Assembly: GCA_021432655.1 (NCBI GenBank)
Contig: MU271221.1
Span: forward strand, 45,256-79,348
Direction: 5' to 3'
Source of the DNA: Atractiella rhizophila
Lineage: Eukaryota
Length of the DNA: 34,093 nucleotides
The notes under the pieces are model-generated. The model worked only from the letters and a program-made list of their open reading frames with translations. It had not been told where the DNA came from and made no database searches. A program made the translations under genes and the position numbers. This document shows, piece after piece, positions 1,105-34,093 of this stretch (position 1 is the first letter of the stretch; the number at the start of each line of letters is the position of its first letter).

Positions 1105-2822
1105 CTACACAATCATATCCGTTGAACCTTCTGAAAGGGTAAACCCATAGTAACTCGGTGGATAAAGCTGAGACGCATGACGGAATGCAGATCTGATATC
1201 CTCTTCTTCCCACTCTCCAAAGAAAAGATGTAGGACAATCTGCCTCGGGGCATAACCTGTCAAGAAATCCAAGAATCCCTGGAAATTGAGGGAACAGAAA
1301 GAGAGGTCGAGGGAAAAAAGTTCGGAGAACTGGGAGAGTGATCCGATGAAGCTAAACAAGTCGTGCGGGACTTCATGACCGCCATCAAGGATTATTTTCG
1401 TCATGTCTAGTAGTGCTACAGGCTGCAAGCTTTCCGAAAACACCATGTCTGTCAGATCGAGGTGTTTGAACCATGAAGTTGGACTCAAACTGACAATGAG
1501 CTCGTCCATGGGCTGATAGCTTGATGGGAATCTGATGAGGAGGCAACAGTAGATGGACAAATAGGATAGCTTTGGACCAGAGAAGATAGGATGGATAAAA
1601 TGCGGCACGTAGATGTGCTCCAGCGACACCTCAGAAAGATTGACAGGTGTTGGCAGTTGAACATCAGTTTCTTCCATCAAAGCCAAGCTCGCAGGCAAGA
1701 CGTCAATCTGATGCCAGCTTAATAAATGGATCTTGCATAATTTTGTCCATGAGCAAGTCGTTTTAAGGAAGTTGTGCAAAGACTGTTGTGACCAACCTAA
1801 AAGAGTCAACGATTGTATGGAGCTCAGGGTTGCTAGGGCAATCAGGCCATTGCCCTCGTCGAACAATTTTGAGGAAGAAAAGCAAGAAAGTGAGACGACG
1901 GTGATTGCTTGTTGGAAGTCAATGGCTAAATCGACAAGATTCCTAACATCCACCCGTAAAGAGTCCATGAGATGGCAGTGCAAATTGGTCCAGAATCTTC
2001 TTGCCTTAGGATAAGACACCAGCTTTCGATACTTGATGAAACCCGAAGAAGGCTCGGGATCCAGGATCCGCATGTGATCCCACCAAAGTTTACAAACAGT
2101 TGAGCAGATTTTATGTGTATCGTGGTCATCCAGCACAAGCTGCTCGAAAATAAGTGATAATATTTCTACGGGTAGAGCAGCGATCGGCGACTCTGTACCG
2201 GAAGGGACAGTAGTAAGTTGAAGATGTGAAAATTGGACGCCACGGCGAATCACGAGGACGCCACTACGTTTCGCACAGACGCCACTACGTTTCACAAAGG
2301 GAACTTTGGGCAAGGCGACTGCTACTGTCGCTGTGTGCGCTTCTGAGCCGAATGGTAACTCAACTGTGACTGGCTTGACAACGTCATATTGATATGTGTC
2401 TTCCAATGTCATAGTAGCATAATCATCCAACAGCAAAGAGCAGTCAAAAGGATCCAGATAGATGTGGACTGCGTCCGAAAGATAGCGATGACGGTTTGGT
2501 AGAAAACGAATCGGACATTTTCTCGTAAGACGGCCGGTCCAATCCCAAGGCAAGAAGTGTATAAAGATGCTTCGTACGAGTGGGAGGGCGTCCACAAATG
2601 ATTGGGTCCAGCTCAGGTGTAACGTGTACGGATCGTCAAGTGTGCCGTAGCCTTCAGATATCAACATGATTGGTGTTCGCATTTCGCTACGTGATACAAG
2701 GTGCCTGTGCATAAACAAAACATCAGTGCATCACTCTTACGCCTCACGAAAGCATTCAAACTGAACTGTTACTTGATCGGCGGTCGAATTGCCGTAGACG
2801 AACGTTCACCGGCACCGTTCAT
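1105..2822 (-). CDS. F-box-like plus LRR/RNI-like protein, copy A; exons 2822-2773 and 2704-1105
   Basis: F-box motif SPIAALPVEILSLIFEQLV...ICSTVCKLWWDHM, followed by LxxLxL repeats (IQSLTL, LCKIHL, LSEVSL, LSYLSI, FKHLDL, LFSLDL). A 68-nt intron GTAACA..CTGAT..CACAG (2772-2705) joins MNGAGERSSTAIRPPIK in frame and is conserved in copy B. Confidence 0.85.
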
Positions 2823-3793: not shown

Positions 3794-4935
3794 GTGCCGG
3801 AAAGTCATCAATCATGATGGCTTTTGTTCAGAATTGTGGAGCTTAGTTCTGGCAAAATCAGTGTGGATGACGTAGACATTAGCAAAATAGGTCTTTCGGA
3901 GTTGCGAGAGAAGATATCCATCATACCCCAGGAGGCCCTTCTGTTCAACGGCACGATCCGTTCAAACCTCGACCCTTTCAACGTTTACGACGATGCACGA
4001 CTCAACGATGCCCTGAAGCGAGCGTGGTTGATCGACGCTCCCTCCGATGCCTCGCCTTCGAAGTCCCGTCGACGATCTACGGAAAAGCTACCGACGGACG
4101 AAGATGGGATTGAAGCAGAGACACCCACAGCTGCCGCAAGCAAAAACAAATTTCACCTTGATTTTGTTGTCGAGGATGAGGGCTTGAATTTGAGTGTCGG
4201 CGAACGTAGTTTGGTGTCTTTGGCTCGAGCTCTTGTAAAGAACTCTCAGGTACGACTTCTTTTCCATCAGATACCCGTCGATGAACATGATCATTCCTAC
4301 TCAGATCATCGTCTTGGATGAAGGTGCGTAAATCACCAAGCTAGCTATTTATCTTGACCATTTCCCTTTAGCTACTGCTGCAGTAGTATGTCACTTCTTG
4401 CCTCTCTCGGTCTGCGCTAATTTCTGGATTCACTTAGGACTATGCAACGGTGGGTTGGTTCAAGGAATTCGGAAGCCTGCTCACAATGAGACCCAGGACT
4501 TTCGCATACAAACCACGATTCGCACGGAATTCTCTCATGCCACTCTCCTCTGCATTGGTAAACTCCTTGTTGATACAACGAGTTTGTTCTGAAATATGTC
4601 TCAGCCCATCGTCTTCGAACAATTCTCTCTTACGATCGGTGAGTCTTAATTTTGTCTCAATTTTCCTTTCAGCTTATTCCTGTCTGCAGGATTCTTGTCA
4701 TGGTGAGCTTCGTCTTCACTTCCTGTCACGTCTTATTGACTGCATCGTAGGACAAAGGTGAAGTCGCTGAATTCGACAGTCCAGAAAACCTCTTTAGGAA
4801 GGAGGATGGCATCTTCCGGCAAGTCACTCATTGCTTCTGACTTGTATGGAATCTTAACGCAGCCACAGGTCGATGTGTGACAAATCTCAGCTCACACTGG
4901 ATGATATACTCAAAGCTTCAAGCTATTATGAATAG
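3794..4935 (+). CDS. ABCC/MRP-family ABC transporter (Yor1/Ycf1-like), C-terminal NBD2, multi-exon, 5' part missing
   Basis: Walker A GAGKSS, Q-loop IIPQEALLFNGTIRSNLDP, signature NLSVGERSLVSLARAL, Walker B and D-loop IIVLDEATAAVD (assembled across micro-exons), H-loop IAHRLRTILSYDRILVM; stop TAG at 4933-4935. One apparent extra T at 3822-3825. Confidence 0.93.
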
Positions 4936-15122: not shown

Positions 15123-18100
15123 ATGTCAGTGAATCGCCTGCCTCCCACCAACTCCACCCGCGCACGTTCAGGGTCGACCTCCCGTCCGCGGCCCAGCAAC
15201 CTCTCAGCAGCCTCTATTCCACCTCCCGCGGTCCCACCCACGACGAACGGCAGCCTCGCAGATGGCTCCTCCTCCACCGCCGACTTTCTCGCTTCCGACG
15301 AAGCTCTCTTGAAGGCGTATAGGCTCTCTAGTCTCGAACCAGCGAAGTGGGAAGATGTCCAGTTCGGAGGAGCTGATGACATGGCGTCTGGTGGAACAGG
15401 AGCTGGGGGAGAAAACACTCGTGATCCGTTGGGGTTGACTAAGAGTTCCATTCTAGCGTTTGTCTTGGTTTCCATCACAGAGAAGGATACTGACTATCCG
15501 GTATTTGTAGAAACATTCCAAAGGAGACGGATAAGAAGCAGATCTTGAGCAGCAGCAAGAACTTTGACCCAAAGGTCTTCCTCTCTACAGTTCATCCCAA
15601 TGCATCGTTTGCGGATTTGGCTAGAGGGAGGGAGAGATTACGGGAAGTGTGCGTATCTTCTTCGTTCACTCTTAGTTCGCTCGCAAGTGAACTAACTGCT
15701 ACTATGCGTTTGGGGTTCGGATCGGTCACAGGTTAGATTCACGAACGGAAGCCTTGCAGACCCTCGTAGAGAAAGAATGGGACCGTTTCGTCTCCGTGAA
15801 GGGCGCAACACAGAGTATGTCTGCATTCTACCTTCTTCTTCCGTCCTCCTAATGCCTAAATGGACTCACCGTTGTTGTTGAATAGATGTGATCGAAGAAA
15901 TGAACGACCTCTCCTCCGGCCCATTGGCACCCGGACAAGACGCAGGTGTACGAAATATCAGAGAATCTTTATCCAGTTCGTTTAACACTTCCCTACGTCA
16001 TCAGAGAGTTCCATCCAAAGTAACAATGATGCATGCTCTAGATGCAAACGAAAAGGCGTCTTTAGCGTTCCAGCCCATTCTCGATGCACGCTTGAAGGCA
16101 GAGAGGTTGCGAAGCACCTTAGGAGTGTTTGAGCGGAGCAAGTTCTTCTTCAACTTGCCTGGGGTCATACGAGAGGGGGTCGATTCTGTATGTACTCGCA
16201 TCCCCTTTCGACGAGGGTGGGTTATTGCTAGAAACTGACGGAGGACACAGGGACGATACGATACTGCTCTCACCGCGTATAAGAAAGGGAGATACCTCAT
16301 GGAAAGCCGACCGGGGATGTTGATCCCTTTTGGGGCTGGCGGTGTTGGAGGTGGGGGAGCGGAGGGGAGGAAACGAGTATTTGACAAGGTTAGTGATCTT
16401 TCATCCTCTTTAGTCGGTGAAGGGAAACTCAATCGTCGATGTGACTAGGTCTGGAGTCAGGTGGAAGGAATTGTGGGAGATCTGAAGAAGGACCTTGGAG
16501 CGAGGTTAAGGGATCCGCGTTGTCCTATCGAGGAAGTAGAACGGACGATTGAGTGCGTCTTCCCTCGTTAGCTTCTTTCTCTTTCACTAAAATTCAAATT
16601 GTTGTCAGGATCCTCCTTGAGCTCGATCCCAACGATCAACCAGTATGGATATTCTTGGACACTCAGAATGAGTGGATACTCTCGTTGCTGAAGAAGACAG
16701 AGGAGGTGGGGAGGGCGAAGTTCGCTGGTGCGTTTCGTTTCTATCGCTCCAGAGCGTGATGCGTCTGAACTGTGTTGTTACAACATATACAGAGACGATC
16801 GATAAAGATGGAAGGGAGATGGACGAAGCCTTCATCCTTGCAGACCTGCAAGGAGTTCTCGAAGGTAGGGAGGAAGATATGGATCGAATACTTGGTTCGT
16901 TCCATCCCACTTTCTGACACAAAGAAGAGGAGCTGAAGTGTTGGTGGGACACAGAGACGGGGAGGGGCTCAAGTGTTTGGAAAGCTGCTTACGCATTTAC
17001 CAAGGACTTGAGCGACGTAATGCTCCACGCTCTTCCTACTTTTCTGAAAGTAGCGAGAGGTTACACGGAAGGGAAGTATCAAAAAGTCAGTCCCTTTCTT
17101 TGATTTCGATTCCTGAGTATTAAAAGATGTGGTATTATATGACAGAAAAACCTTTCGTCAACGTCAACGCCGAAACGCTCAGCCACACAATGTAAAAGCA
17201 TGACCTACGGCATCATCACTCTCTACGTGACCCTCATTTCCAATTTCTTCTCCTTCTCCTCCTCGTCCTCCACTGCGCCACCAGATAGCCTTGCGCTTCC
17301 GTACATCCCCTCCAACTCAAGCGCTCTGATGACCGCACATTGGACAAACAAAATCCTCCGAGTCCTCTCCCATATCGTTTCAGAAAGCAACGGTGGGGAT
17401 TTAGTCGGTGAACCCACCCAGCTCTTGAAAGAACTCCTGGAGAGTGCGCGGAGTGGATTCCTCGCTGTTATCGCGAGCTCATGGACGCGTGGTACGTCTT
17501 CAAGCCTATTTCTCGACCGTAACCCATCTGACCTGCGCTGGCGTGCGTGGCGTTGTGCCTGGGATAGATTCGGGTCTCCTAACGCGTATGGAAGATTGGG
17601 AGCCAGATGCAGATGAAGGCGGGCGGAGCACGACCAATGTGAAGCTTCTGGTGCGGTTTGAAGAGGAAGAGCTGAGGTTTTGTGGGAGCATCTTTGGGAA
17701 GGTGGAGAAGGAAGGATTTTTGGGTCGAGCGGAAAGGGAGAGGAGGGAGGAAGTGGTTCGTCCTAGATTCCGCTACATCACCATGTTACAAAGGCTTAGC
17801 GAGTGTTAGCCCATACCCCCAGCCCTCGTCGCTAAGAGCCAGAAAGCGTTTCTTGACAGTTGGTACAATATCTTAGAGGGCATTGGACAGTTAGAAGGCA
17901 CCGAAGAAGTCGACTTGGTACTTTGCACTTTCACCTCTCGAGAAAAGCTAATGCGAAGCATGATAGGACAAACGGTTATTGTTAAGCATGTGCAACCTCG
18001 AAGAATTCCAAGAGAAAGTTATACCCAAGCTCGCAGAAAAGTTCCACGAGATCTTCAAACATGAGATCGACCAAGATCTCGACGTACGCCTTTCATTCTT

Positions 18101-18763
18101 CTGTTGATATCTGTGCTGAACATGTTGACACAGATTCTCTTGAACGTCGTAAAGGAGCTAAGCGATAGACTTTTCAACGATTACGTGGAGAGTAAACGCG
18201 CTCGAATAGAAAAGATCATTACAGTTGGTGTATTGGAAGATGGTATCGATTGGCTCAACACGCCGAAACCGACAGGTTTGCCTTTCGCATATTCTCAATT
18301 GCACCAAATCAGGCTGATCGAATATGGCCAAATAGAGGTCCATCCCTTCATCTACTCCTCTCTCCTTTCCTTAGTCCTTATTCATGCTCAAGTCTCTGGT
18401 GTTACCCCCACATTGGTCAATCGCGTCCTTGAGCGTCTCGTATACGAACTGGCCACCATCACGCTCACTTGTTTCTCAAAAGTTGAAGCTTTCGGCATGG
18501 GCGGAATGCTACAAGCGACTCTCGAAATCGAATTCATTCATCAAACCCTACCCATGTTCATGACTCCAAAAGCAGACGAGACGCTCCAAAAGGTTTATGC
18601 TACCATCAGCGCGAAGAAGACGAGACAGAAGGACTCCGGAGCGGAACTGCAGAAAGACCTGGAAGGCCTCAAAAAGGTCTTGAGCGAGAGTAGGAAGAAT
18701 ACGATGCTCCAGTTTTTGGCTTTCAAGAAACCGAAAGGCGATAGGGAGGGGAACAAGGGATAG
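15123..18763 (+). CDS. SEC5: Exocyst complex component Sec5/EXOC2, multi-exon
   Basis: SSKNFDPKVFLSTVHPNASFADLARGRERLR; LVEKEWDRFVSVK; KAERLRSTLGVFERSKFFFNLPG; ALTAYKKGRYL; EAFGMGGMLQATLEIEFIHQTL. The exon junctions checked join in frame through GT-AG introns. Confidence 0.93.
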
Positions 18764-19198: not shown

Positions 19199-19455
19199 TA
19201 GACCAAGGTTTCTCGATGTGAAGGGGTCGCTTCGAGTCGTTTCGAGCCAGCTCAATGGCAGTCTTTTTATCGGCTCCTGCCACAAACGCATGGCGACAAC
19301 ATCCCCGTCAACCCACACAGTGTCGCTGTGACGGTGTGGCGAAATCTTGAGTCCAAGACTCCAACGAATCCACCGACAGCACAGAAGACTGACTCCCCTC
19401 AGAACGACCCACTTGCGCGCCGAATGGAGGGCGAAAGCAAAATAGTTTTGGCCTA
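19199..19455 (-). ncRNA. Putative structured RNA element (unassigned ncRNA or structured UTR)
   Basis: Nested complementary helices found by eye: UAGGCCAA/UUGGUCUA, GGGUCGUUCUGAG/CUCGAAGCGACCC, CAGUCUU/AAGACUG, UGUCGGU/GCCGAUA, plus three distal hairpins. Wobble positions are G-U on the minus strand and A-C on the plus strand. Confidence 0.45.
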
Positions 19456-19727
19456 TTACGCTGTTAAATAACTGCTACTAGGAAGCAGACCAAATCTGCA
19501 CTCTGGCATATCAAAGTTGCAACTTGAGCATCGCCAATTCTTAGCTGGTACTTCATCGAAATTTCTAATAATCATCAAACAATGCCCGCCGACTGGGGAG
19601 ATTACTTGTAACGATGAATTGGAATGCACATCGATGAATTTCCCAGAATCAAACCCTCGAGCAATTTCTTTGCACCATAACCTAAAGGCGCCTCAGTTTG
19701 GTTCAGGGATGAGAGGAACGAGCACAC

Positions 19728-21132
19728 CTAACTCAGGATAAGAGCCGTAGGTCTCTGATCGCCTACAGAGCGCTGCCGGCCATATTTGAGAAAGAATTGA
19801 TTAAGAAGAAAGTGCTTACGATTCCTACACCTCGTCCTCAGGGTCCAATGATAGATATCTAGCAGGTCCAGCTTCCAAGCGGGGTAACGAACAGCCATAG
19901 CATCGTCCCAAAAAGTATCGTCGCTCCCCGGAACCCGAATCTTGTACGTTAGAGCTTCCTTCCCCTCCCGAATGCATGCTTTGAGAAGCTGATTCAACAA
20001 CAAGTTGCCGTCTGTGTGATCCAAAGAGCGGCGATTCAAGACCTCTCGGAGCATCTCCTGAAAGTCAGGCTCTTTCCATATCCGTGGCTGGTTCTCAGGC
20101 TGACTCGCATAATGTAACCTGGGAGACGAGATAGCAGTACGCTGAATGCGGAGAGCGAAGGAAGCTGCGTCGCCATCGATAACGAGAGAGGACGACATTC
20201 TTCCTTTCAATGGACGTGTGATGGAAGGGCAAGAAAGACTGCATGCAATCTTTCCCTCATCCCCCAGCTTCCAGCTGTCGTAGACAATCGTATATCCACG
20301 GTCCTGGTACTTCTCCATGCACTTCTTTTCACGATCTTGGAGCGGATGTTGCAGAGATTCTCGCAGCTCGTAGCCACTATGCTTGAAGGTGAGCACGGGA
20401 TAGAGTACTCGAACGTAATCATGGGCAATGTAGTTCATCTGCATCCTGCCGTCAGAATCACTGGCGTGATTACATATATAAGTTAAGAGAGACGACGAAC
20501 AACGACTGTAGAATGAAAGCAAGTGATGCAATGTCTCGGATCTTTATGGTGGCATTCGACGACGTCCACTTTGACCTTCTCGCCTGTTGATTCCCTCGTC
20601 TTGGTCATGCCGCTCACATTCTTAGGGCATGTGATATAATTCGGGTTGTTGTCGTAAGGATGTGGACGCGTCCAGTCGTTCGACGGTTGGTACCCTTCCT
20701 CGTCGACGAGATACCGGACTAGAGCATCGGAGTGACCGACTGGCACATAAATATCGAGGTCTTTAGCGGACCAAGATTCATCCCCTGAGATGAAGGACAG
20801 TGCCGTTGACCTTGAAATGTTCTTACATAAGCGACAGAAGGAAGGAAAATGTGTCCGGTAACTAACCCGGAAATGATGGCTCCTGTCACTCGCATGGCCT
20901 CCCTGAATTCCTCAACGTCGTCCATATACCTGCCGACATACGTCTTGAACTTTGTTTCGAGGTAATCATCGATCTTTTGTCTCCAAAAACCTTTATTCAG
21001 TTTTCGTAGCTTCCCCAACGCCCAGAGGGGTAGAATGCCGAGGATGTAGAAATCAAATATCTCAATAGGAAGGTTGGAGAAGAGACCAGCGTTAGTGGCC
21101 GTAACCTCTGGGTCGACTTGTTGAGACGACAT
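19728..21132 (-). CDS. F-box-like plus Pol-beta-superfamily nucleotidyltransferase-like protein, 428 aa; exons 21132-20867, 20810-20501, 20438-19728
   Basis: Introns GTTAGT..TTCAAG (56 nt) and GTTCGT..CTGAC..TGCAG (62 nt) give FREAMRVTGAIISGSTALSFISGDESWSAKDLDIYVP...KVKVDVVEC...CFHSTVVMNYIAHD..LYPVLTF..EKYQDRGY. The N-terminal LFSNLPIEIFDFYILGILPLWALGKLRKLNK is F-box-like. Confidence 0.85.
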
Positions 21133-22038
21133 ATTGCTGATGGTGCAGACTAAGACTTCAAAACGTTGTTTAGCGCTTGATCAAACGAGAGTAGAGTTCT
21201 ACTTGACAGAGGGTCAACAGCCTGCTTCCTTTGTTGCTTGAACCTTCAAGAGCACATTTGACAAGTGCTGAGAAAAAATCAAGCCAAGCTTCAGGTCATA
21301 CCATTTGAGCCCAGACGGCATCAGGGCAAAGAGTGCCAATGCAATTCGTTCAAATACTTGTACAGTACAAGGCACAGACTCGCTATTGAACTGGTCGGTA
21401 CAGGGCAGTTTATCTTGAGACGCGACAGCTTTGTGCACGTCAAAGCGACAGGAGATGATTTCCTCAGCAGCACCACTCAATAAAGGTATCACAACCAACA
21501 CAAGACAACGCGTCATTTGAGAAGACAACCTCACAAACCACTATCATCTTTCCTGAGAAACAAAACACGCACCTTTACACCAGAGCTGCTTGTGTAGAGG
21601 CTGCTGCAGGCGAATACGAACAAGAATGAGGGTGTCGTCTTTGACTTCTCGTGCAGCTGCGCGTTAATACATTCTACCAGACACTTTATGATTCCCCCGT
21701 CGGAAGTCAAAATAGCTTTATCGCTGGAGAACTGTTGTACTGGGGAGCAGTTCCCATTTATTGTGACAAGTCAACCAACATGAAGCGACACCACGTACTT
21801 CGCGTTCGCACAAACACAAGTTGAATCGTTGCCCAGGAGTCTTCATTGCTTTTCATCAAATACATTCAGTTGCGTGGAGGTGAAAGAGAGAGTGCAGTAG
21901 TTCCAACCAAATGGCAACAACGCTGCACTTGCGCTTTCATCCCGAGAAGCGGCGTATGAACCACTACAACGATGTGGAAGATACAGGCACAAGTGCAATC
22001 ATGAGAATAGGTTGAGAACATGAAAATAAGAGATGAGT

Positions 22039-32479: not shown

Positions 32480-34093
32480 ATGATGCGATCACGCTCCCCA
32501 TCGCTTGAGGACTTCGACCAAACCTTGCGTTGCTTCGTCACAGATGCAAATGACCCTACCTCTCGTTTAGCTAGTCCTCCTACACAGGAAATAGGAACCT
32601 CAACCGGAGCGCCAATTCCAGTTCTCTCCCCTGTGCATGATTCTCCCAAGTGGACCGATTTNNNNNNNNNNNNNNNNNNNNNNNNNNNNNNNNNNNNNNN
32701 NNNNNNNNNNNNNNNNNNNNNNNNNNNNNNNNNNNNNNNNNNNNNNNNNNNNNNNNNNNNNNNNNNNNNNNNNNNNNNNNNNNNNNNNNNNNNNNNNNNN
32801 NNNNNNNNNNNNNNNNNNNNNNNNNNNNNNNNNNNNNNNNNNNNNNNNNNNNNNNNNNNNNNNNNNNNNNNNNNNNNNNNNNNNNNNNNNNNNNNNNNNN
32901 NNNNNNNNNNNNNNNNNNNNNNNNNNNNNNNNNNNNNNNNNNNNNNNNNNNNNNNNNNNNNNNNNNNNNNNNNNNNNNNNNNNNNNNNNNNNNNNNNNNN
33001 NNNNNNNNNNNNNNNNNNNNNNNNNNNNNNNNNNNNNNNNNNNNNNNNNNNNNNNNNNNNNNNNNNNNNNNNNNNNNNNNNNNNNNNNNNNNNNNNNNNN
33101 NNNNNNNNNNNNNNNNNNNNNNNNNNNNNNNNNNNNNNNNNNNNNNNNNNNNNNNNNNNNNNNNNNNNNNNNNNNNNNNNNNNNNNNNNNNNNNNNNNNN
33201 NNNNNNNNNNNNNNNNNNNNNNNNNNNNNNNNNNNNNNNNNNNNNNNNNNNNNNNNNNNNNNNNNNNNNNNNNNNNNNNNNNNNNNNNNNNNNNNNNNNN
33301 NNNNNNNNNNNNNNNNNNNNNNNNNNNNNNNNNNNNNNNNNNNNNNNNNNNNNNNNNNNNNNNNNNNNNNNNNNNNNNNNNNNNNNNNNNNNNNNNNNNN
33401 NNNNNNNNNNNNNNNNNNNNNNNNNNNNNNNNNNNNNNNNNNNNNNNNNNNNNNNNNNNNNNNNNNNNNNNNNNNNCGGAGTCGCCGTCATGGATTGGAA
33501 AGAGAAGCCTTCCCGGCTGTCTCTCAGCAGCAGTTCAGGCACGGAGGGCTACCATGATGCGAACGAGCACCACCAGTTTCCTGAAATGTCCACTGCGAGG
33601 GCTGTTGGACTGGTGGCTGTCTGTACGACTGCCATTACCATCTCAGTGCGTTCCTTCCCATTTCCAATCTGAAATTCGGTGGCTGACTTGATGGCCGCTG
33701 GGGGCATAGATTGCGTCGAACCAGGGTATGGCCATAGCCCTTCCTTCCATAGGAGCAGCGCTCGGCATCCCCAACTCGCGACTTCAATGGCTTGTTTCCT
33801 GTCCGTCTTCTCCGCTTCCCATCTCCTCATAAGTCGTCTAACTCCCGTCAATGTACAGCCAACAGTTTAACGACCGGTTGTTTCCTCCTCCTCTTCGGTC
33901 GCCTCTCGGATCTGTACGGTCATCGTCGCGTCTTCCTCTTGGGAATGTCGTGGACGACAGTATGGAATCTGGGATGCGGCTTTGCACCTAACGAGATCGG
34001 GATGGACATCATGAGAGGACTTGCCGGGTTGGGAACTGCTGCTTCCATACCTGCTGCCGTGGGTGTGCTAGGCAATAGCTTTCCGCCTGGACC
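32480..34093 (+). CDS. MFS transporter (DHA2/drug:H+ antiporter-like), interrupted by a gap and truncated at the window end; start uncertain
   Basis: Spliced IASNQGMAIALPSIGAALGIPNSRLQWLVSSNSLTTGCFLLLFGRLSDLYGHRRVFLLG (motif A) and MRGLAGLGTAASIPAAVGVLGNSFPPG. Confidence 0.88.
32662..33476. other. Assembly gap (815 N)
   Basis: Run of n. Confidence 1.

Follow-up and report, generated by a model that had tools for sequence, protein, structure and literature searches.

A spliced gene of Atractiella rhizophila predicted to encode an F-box-like N-terminus fused to a Pol-beta-type nucleotidyltransferase related to Gad2

The stretch of DNA analysed here (the window) covers 34,093 nucleotides (nt) of contig MU271221.1 of the root fungus Atractiella rhizophila. 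It carries, on its minus strand, a gene of five coding exons whose product is predicted to combine an F-box-like N-terminus, a nucleotidyltransferase (NTase) core of the DNA polymerase beta (Pol-beta) type and a C-terminal region marked by four conserved cysteines. The gene starts with the ATG at 21132-21130, and as no in-frame ATG lies upstream of 21132, this start codon stands. The coding sequence ends at 19602, the stop codon being 19602-19604. A translation script showed that the five spliced exons give, letter for letter, the 439 amino acids (aa) of P0001, a deposited hypothetical protein of A. rhizophila that was found at 100% identity over 87% of the query in a protein search with exon 3. 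A script check also indicated that all four coding introns have GT..AG ends. The features of the gene are the following.

21156-21572, minus strand: possible intron in the 5' untranslated region (UTR), 417 nt, GTGCGT..TTGAAG, a hint only
20867-21132, minus strand: coding exon 1, residues 1-88 and two bases of the G89 codon, ending inside the hG[GS] motif (GAIISG/S, the slash marking the junction)
20953-21075, minus strand: F-box-like segment, residues ~20-60 (NLPIEIFDFYILGILPLWALGKLRKLNKGFWRQ...)
20292-20883, minus strand: predicted core of the nucleotidyltransferase (residues 84-241), within which introns 1 and 2 lie
20811-20866, minus strand: intron 1, 56 nt, GTTAGT..TTCAAG, cutting the G89 codon, with a joint in the data sets X7 and X2 (an RNA run)
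20501-20810, minus strand: exon 2, last base of the G89 codon, then S90 to V192
20759-20761, 20753-20755 and 20564-20566, minus strand: codons of D106, D108 and D171, all in exon 2
20439-20500, minus strand: intron 2, 62 nt, GTTCGT..ATGCAG, containing a CTGAC that resembles a branch site; the junction is also in P0001
19820-20438, minus strand: exon 3, residues 193-398 and one base
19765-20243, minus strand: Cys4 module, C258, C262, C396 and C401 as a putative zinc site, with conserved R267, D282 and W369
19773-19819, minus strand: intron 3, 47 nt, GTAAGC..CGGCAG, with a joint in X7; also in P0001
19728-19772, minus strand: exon 4, residues 399-413 and one base, with C401 at 19765-19767
19682-19727, minus strand: intron 4, 46 nt, GTGTGC..CTTTAG, with a joint in X7; also in P0001
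19602-19681, minus strand: coding part of exon 5, residues 414-439 and the stop codon, a tail devoid of conservation

Intron 1 falls within the G89 codon, and the active-site signature is consequently divided between two exons in its hG[GS] half, as had been proposed in the original prediction, which was made from the letters of the window. Exon 3 brings the last two residues of FHSTVVMN together with YPVLT, KYQDRGY, C258, C262, R267, D282, W369 and C396. The original prediction had the start, introns 1 and 2 and all its motifs right: GAIISGS-x15-DLDIYV lies at residues 84-111, KVKVDVVE at 167-174, FHSTVVMN at 187-194 and KYQDRGY at 235-241. Its length of 428 aa and its end at 19728 were wrong, since introns 3 and 4 had been missed and P0001 has 439 aa. 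The TAG that closed the 428-aa model (19728-19730) in fact spans the donor site of intron 4, and the model agrees with P0001 no further than residue 398 and loses the conserved C401. As C401 is encoded by exon 4, the conserved set of four cysteines is found only in the five-exon model, and this provides evidence from conservation for intron 3 that is independent of RNA. The locus also holds a warning for scans based on open reading frames (ORFs): only after removal of the 56-nt intron does the catalytic motif become visible, and the 47-nt intron must likewise be spliced out for a conserved cysteine to be retained.

The transcript evidence consists of assembled contigs aligned to the window, not of reads. 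A data set whose kind is not on record, X7, accounts for 64% of the sampled words of the stretch, and several RNA runs account for small shares. X7 carries the gene in a form lacking the four introns and can therefore only be derived from cDNA. The gene is expressed. For intron 1, the junction appears as a joint that skips 56 nt, with CT..AC ends on the plus strand, both in X7 and in X2, a root metatranscriptome that is independent of X7 for this junction. Joints that skip 47 nt and 46 nt in X7 correspond to introns 3 and 4. Intron 2 is represented by no joint row; the X7 contigs have loose ends at 20438 and 20501 that are identical, letter for letter, to positions 20501-20516 and 20425-20438 of the window. 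These loose ends match the far side of intron 2, which indicates that this junction is used as well. Thus, both introns that had been proposed at the outset are used in transcript contigs and are also found in P0001. Two other data sets indicate presence only and inform on no junction: the single contig from X1 is exonic, 184 nt long and free of differences, and that from X5 has 186 nt and shows 3 differences.

Some details of the transcripts concern the ends and the copies of the gene. The only transcript contig that covers the last exon comes from X7, and it has 1 nt fewer in the CCC run at 19654-19656 (depth 38/38), with which the ORF would end at 423 aa. This difference may reflect an error in the genome or in the contig, or else an allele, and the product accordingly ends in either the 439-aa or the 423-aa form. 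Second X7 contigs cover 20308-20438 and 20866-21010 with 8-9 differences per ~145 nt and represent an allele or a very close paralogue. The hint of an intron in the 5' UTR comes from X7 contigs that, beyond 21158, match positions 21576-21605 of the window with 2 mismatches. X7 also skips 47 nt at 19451-19497, in the 3' UTR, with GC..CT ends on the plus strand and a short side of only 20 letters; reading this skip as a GC-AG intron, which supposes a shift by 2, is doubtful.

P0001 belongs to a large fungal family, mostly from Basidiomycota. In an exhaustive search with HMMER, 1207 cluster representatives came up at E<=1e-3, of which 202 had E<=1e-10; this agrees with the expansions in basidiomycetes mentioned in the original prediction. 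Named members come from Tulasnella, Coprinellus, Tephrocybe, Mycena, Athelia, Favolaschia, Trametes and Vararia, and the Atlas clusters are mostly from Basidiomycota, one of them being mostly from Ascomycota. Conservation was examined in an alignment of 109 sequences (A1) that comprises P0001, 102 of the 149 other listed rows and 6 of the 8 further protein-search hits, long, multi-stretch or partial rows having been excluded. In the window itself, the profile of the family, run with hmmsearch on the six-frame ORFs, matched this gene only and thus no paralogue. The closest relative is P0010 from Tulasnella sp. 403 (836 aa, E 6.5e-49), which has two complete F-box + NTase modules in tandem; this tandem is either a real duplication-fusion or the product of two merged gene models.

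The motif hG[GS]-x(9-13)-Dh[DE]h characterizes the DNA polymerase beta-like nucleotidyltransferase superfamily. P0001 carries it as IISGS-x15-DLDIY, with a spacing of 15 that is constant in the consensus of the family and that, as had been remarked at first sight, exceeds the textbook 9-13. The residues of the predicted active site are close to invariant: G89 is found in 109/109 members, S90 in 107/109, D106 in 107/109 and D108 in 106/109. Column 171 holds D in 92/109 members, N in 7, Q in 7 and another residue in 3. GS and DxD are kept together in 105/109 members, 90/109 also having D or E at position 171. The acidic triad that had been regarded as intact is therefore present in P0001 and conserved in A1, and the core is apparently that of a catalytically intact NTase, as predicted from its sequence. 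Further conserved positions lie in FHSTxVMN (F187, T190, N194), YPxLT (Y205, P206, T209) and KYxxRG (K235, Y236, R239, G240).

The conservation extends past the core, as indicated by three C-terminal columns (R267 in 91/99, D282 in 94/97 and W369 in 94/96) and by the cysteine columns: C258 in 64/72, C262 in 81/90, C396 in 80/81 and C401 in 65/71. The set of four cysteines is complete in 45/109 members and at least three cysteines are found in 73/109. These four conserved cysteines tie the C-terminal region to the core and probably form a zinc site.

AlphaFold 2 (AF2) run with A1 gave a model with a mean predicted local distance difference test score (pLDDT) of 72.4 and a predicted template modelling score of 0.70, with blocks of pLDDT 85-97 at residues ~21-130 and 151-250; a run on the single sequence gave a pLDDT of 31.7 and was useless. 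In the model, D106 and D108 lie on a strand (106-111), D171 on a second one (169-175) and G89-S90 at the start of a helix (89-97). This is the layout expected of an NTase, the clustering of the Asp residues being a prediction. All Foldseek rows listed for the Protein Data Bank (PDB) have an NTase fold: CCA-adding enzymes, TENT5/FAM46, TUT4/Cid1/GLD-2, LnuA, MenT1 and SpoT. VIA-align was run against 48,161 chains. Among the 50 rows listed, the top eight are heads of class II CCA-adding enzymes, A-adding enzymes or poly(A) polymerases, with Z 10.2-7.2 and 155-171 residues aligned over residues ~30-250 of the model; they include 3wfo_A (Z 10.2, root mean square deviation 4.0, 171 residues aligned), 3aql_A (9.2), 3h37_A (9.2), 4wby_A (9.1), 9kma_A (8.2) and 1miv_A (8.1). 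FAM46B reaches 7.1 and the next row 4.8. The match to the class II head spans residues ~58-249 of the model. According to the model and these comparisons, the core (residues ~58-250) has the fold of the Pol-beta superfamily, and the assignment to a Pol-beta-type NTase made in the original prediction is thus borne out.

The best structural match of the P0001 model is therefore to the class II tRNA NTases and bacterial poly(A) polymerase I (PF01743; 3wfo, 3aql, 3h37, 4wby, 1miv, 1ou5), with which the family shares the hG[GS]..DxD logic and the helix-turn layout of the active site. The head-domain fold was recovered, and rows 8-10 of the Atlas are PolyA_pol. No PF01743 match at E<=0.01 was found in the 109 members, and on inspection the family has FHSTxVMN and KYxxRG instead of the class II motifs, whereas E. 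coli Cca has KRRDLTINA. The TENT5/FAM46 poly(A) polymerases also match in fold (6jyj_A, Z 7.1, 170 residues; several Foldseek rows), but they score below the class II heads, show no sequence match and have another C-terminal helical domain.

These neighbours bear on the chemistry of the enzyme, for which the original prediction had named three options. The one that they favour least is the synthesis of a nucleotide second messenger, as by cGAS, CD-NTases or OAS, in a fungal immune pathway. Such a synthase would have the GS..DxD..D signature of the superfamily in common with P0001 and would suit a family that, like those of conflict systems, has expanded, diverges rapidly and has homologues in viruses. 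However, no cGAS, OAS or CD-NTase chain is present among the 50 VIA-align rows or the listed Foldseek rows, and no Pfam match to the corresponding families was found in the 109 members; even though such absences are weak evidence, a messenger synthase appears highly improbable.

An active NTase could also modify an acceptor other than RNA, a protein or a small molecule being NMPylated (given a nucleoside monophosphate, NMP) as by ANT(2''), LnuA or Fic-independent AMPylators. One member, P0060, passes the Pfam cut-off of ANT(2'') over the GS..DLD stretch (25.2 bits vs 21), which also supports the NTase fold. At the level of sequence, the links of members are weak and lead to NTases of small molecules or of no assigned function (Aminoglyc_resit, DUF2204, DUF6036 and NTP_transf_5), the few matches to the last three being sub-threshold; ‘nucleotidyltransferase’ matches in PHROGs are likewise weak and concern only 3/109 members. 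In the structural comparison, ANT(2''), LnuA and TM1012 are found at Z 4.1-4.5, and the failure to detect an RNA-binding body or tail domain in P0001 would also suit an acceptor of this kind. However, NTases that act on RNA 3' ends are clearly the best neighbours (Z 7-10 over ~165 residues), whereas the enzymes for small molecules remain below Z 5, and modification of a non-RNA acceptor is considered improbable.

Whatever its acceptor, the predicted NTase follows a segment that resembles an F-box. F-boxes bind Skp1 in Skp1-cullin-F-box (SCF) ligases. Neither P0001 nor its exon 1 has a Pfam F-box match at E<=10, so that the F-box proposed in the original prediction finds no profile match in the protein itself. 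It is supported through relatives, through the A1 profile and through modelled helices. Indeed, 13/109 members of A1 match Pfam F-box or F-box-like at E<=0.01, 6 of which pass the curated cut-offs, and all 13 matches map to residues ~20-59 of P0001 in A1 (stretch LPIEIFDFYILGILPLWALGKLRKLNKGFW); P0010 and P0095 pass the F-box cut-off too. When the A1 profile was compared with the PDB, F-box proteins named as such or Skp2 accounted for 10 of the 12 best matches, and a 53-residue chain of a Skp1-Skp2 entry for one more; these matches are weak (E 0.019 to 0.8), and those eleven are aligned at the F-box. The model places helices at 23-31, 36-45 and 49-67 with pLDDT 85-97. The LPxEI...L..L....W pattern of SCF F-box proteins (PF00646/PF12937; FBXW7, cyclin F, FBXO4, Skp2) lies at residues 21-50 of P0001. 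The N-terminus is thus positionally homologous to F-boxes, an assignment that rests on the relatives and not on the score of P0001 itself. In contrast to the F-box proteins just named, the partner domain of P0001 has the fold of an enzyme and is not a repeat domain. Taken together, these data support the core of the original interpretation, an F-box-like N-terminus fused to a Pol-beta-type NTase with an intact triad.

The same combination is encountered in giant viruses. A Foldseek search of BFVD with the model gave 54 matches at E<=1e-3, the best one from Klosneuvirus (2.5e-8), followed by Harvfovirus. Among the top 15, six are named ‘F-box domain-containing protein’ (Cedratvirus, Klosneuvirus, Orpheovirus, Catovirus), with 250-276 columns aligned; lower rows include short phage proteins named ‘poly A polymerase head’ or nucleotidyltransferase, and rank 49 is taken by a BTB protein. 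In the Atlas, the nearest annotated clusters are named Gad2 (PF26128) and come from Nucleocytoviricota and Uroviricota, before bacterial PolyA_pol. The Gad2 rows lie above the bar set for taking over a name, with 189 residues aligned and a template modelling score of 0.48 (by query) or 0.72 (by row). Fungal clusters of the Atlas carry no PF26128 annotation. The Pfam copy used finds no Gad2 even in P0163, a protein with a precomputed PF26128.2 annotation, and its negative scans therefore say nothing about PF26128.

Profile alignments agree with these structural matches. The A1 profile matches P0163 at E 2.2e-11, the two aligning over 94 columns with 97.5% in hhalign. A 557-aa giant-virus ORF in L002, on a 163-kb IMG/VR contig, aligns with a probability of 96.5% over 161 columns, from ISGS to KYxxRGF; this locus was found, together with L003, by a locus search with a six-sequence alignment, P0163 alone as query having retrieved no viral relative among the loci searched. 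Judged by these alignments, the fungal family is homologous to the Gad2-type (PF26128) enzymes of giant viruses and phages, and the relatives in large DNA viruses mentioned in the original prediction are confirmed, for giant viruses, by structure and by profile. Gad2 of SPbeta-like phages and giant viruses has in common with P0001 a predicted NTase with ISGS..DLD(I/V)Y and KYxxRGF, whereas P0001 is a cellular protein of a fungus and has, in addition, an F-box-like N-terminus and a Cys4 module. In P0163, L002 and L003, no Cys4 tail was observed. The third carboxylate also differs, Asp being kept in the fungal family whereas the viral relatives examined have Q; the ORFs of L002 and L003 both have Q at the position of D171, and FDFDF in place of FHST. 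The NTase cores of L002 (1415-3088, 557 aa) and L003 (279-1976, 565 aa) are C-terminal and follow a conserved N-terminal domain that matches nothing in Pfam, is not an F-box and contains a ...CCSGGGLYFT... motif.

The giant-virus proteins that join an F-box, a BTB or another N-terminal domain to a class II-like NTase have the same layout as P0001, an adaptor of cullin ligases followed by the NTase core, with homology of sequence across the whole core and DFD/FDF facing FHST. This layout, with the F-box N-terminal to a domain with a variable tail, is also that of classical F-box receptors. The NTase-fold domain could consequently be a target- or nucleotide-binding module of an SCF ligase, as WD40 or LRR domains are, and catalyse no nucleotidyl transfer. 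Such a role would fit the joining of the same domain to other ligase-adaptor modules in giant viruses, such as the BTB protein of BFVD, the presence of a RING zf-C3HC4 domain in 11% of the members of one Atlas cluster and the lack of the third carboxylate in viral relatives. It would also fit the BTB-NTase proteins of Pandoravirus cluster 7, which are described as showing the same features, with Q for the third carboxylate (bioRxiv 10.1101/2023.12.02.569716). A pure binding domain would not, however, need the whole triad, and the near-invariance of G89, S90, D106 and D108, together with 84% D171 over the 109 members, fits an active site under selection. A role restricted to binding is thus judged rather unlikely.

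The best guess, held to be fairly probable, is that P0001 is a Skp1-docked RNA-end nucleotidyltransferase predicted to act in an SCF/Skp1 context. The protein would be docked on Skp1 through its F-box, as part of an SCF ligase or in a dimer with Skp1. The three Asp residues would hold two Mg2+ and the enzyme would move an NMP from a nucleoside triphosphate to a hydroxyl acceptor. Since strong structural neighbours are found only among RNA-end NTases, the 3' end of an RNA would be the most likely acceptor. The result would be a tailing of RNA or of a target that is coupled to the ubiquitin machinery, probably in the setting of a fast-evolving conflict between host and parasite or between self and non-self.

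Several observations weigh against this proposal. The RNA substrate is a guess from structural neighbours. Foldseek found no PDB match at E<=1e-3, and P0001 matched neither the Pfam copy used, in any family, nor, with phmmer, the PDB sequences. The likeness to class II enzymes does not extend to their sequence, since hhalign of A1 with E. coli Cca gave a probability of 0.5%, motifs B (RRD) and D (EDxxR) are absent as such on inspection, and the spacing of GS to DxD is 15 vs 12 in E. coli Cca. Furthermore, no tRNA-binding body or tail domain like that of class II enzymes was detected in P0001, whose model has low confidence at residues 270-439. In the viral relatives examined, Q replaces the third Asp, so that the ancestral chemistry may not need it. 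Finally, Gad2 (Gabija anti-defence 2) is reported as an anti-Gabija phage protein with a predicted NTase domain, for which the 2023 preprint and two reviews of 2026, in the portions available, give no mechanism.

We know of no Gabija system in fungi, and the biological target of the fungal proteins must therefore differ from that of phage Gad2. Gad2-type NTases could form a widespread and unrecognised system of eukaryotes and giant viruses that couples nucleotidyl transfer to cullin-RING ligases through F-box, BTB or RING domains, the fungal proteins marking invader or non-self RNAs or proteins by nucleotidylation and passing them on to the ubiquitin machinery, and the copies of giant viruses and phages being counter-weapons that stem from this enzyme. 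In this full extent the idea is speculative and improbable; if it is true, the complete Asp triad and the Cys4 module would make the fungal family the best entry to the chemistry of phage Gad2. More directly, the data point to a large, apparently intact and transcribed branch of the Gad2-type family in fungi that appears wired to an F-box, with the same wiring in giant viruses. The recurrence of this wiring suggests that nucleotidyl transfer may be functionally linked to ubiquitin ligases, and the fungal members are tractable eukaryotic proteins in which substrates can be sought. In the literature searched, no description of the fungal family or of F-box-NTase fusions was found, and a search with the name of the organism returned ecological papers only.

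The neighbouring ORFs of the window form no functional cluster. Those for which an assignment was obtained are listed below.

18065-18763, plus strand: C-terminal piece of Sec5
3818-4321: piece of an ABC transporter
1105-2730, minus strand: weakly F-box-like ORF of 541 aa (Pfam E 9.5e-4, below cut-off)

In a profile scan of the window, the ORF at 1105-2730 was unrelated to the NTase family. A scan with Pfam of three exon pieces of the gene gave nothing relevant, the one row obtained being a sub-threshold match to sCache_2 (E 0.22). Positions 32663-33476 are a run of N that corresponds to an assembly gap, and this run accounts for the low GC content of the last composition bin and for the ORFs that are listed there in all six frames.

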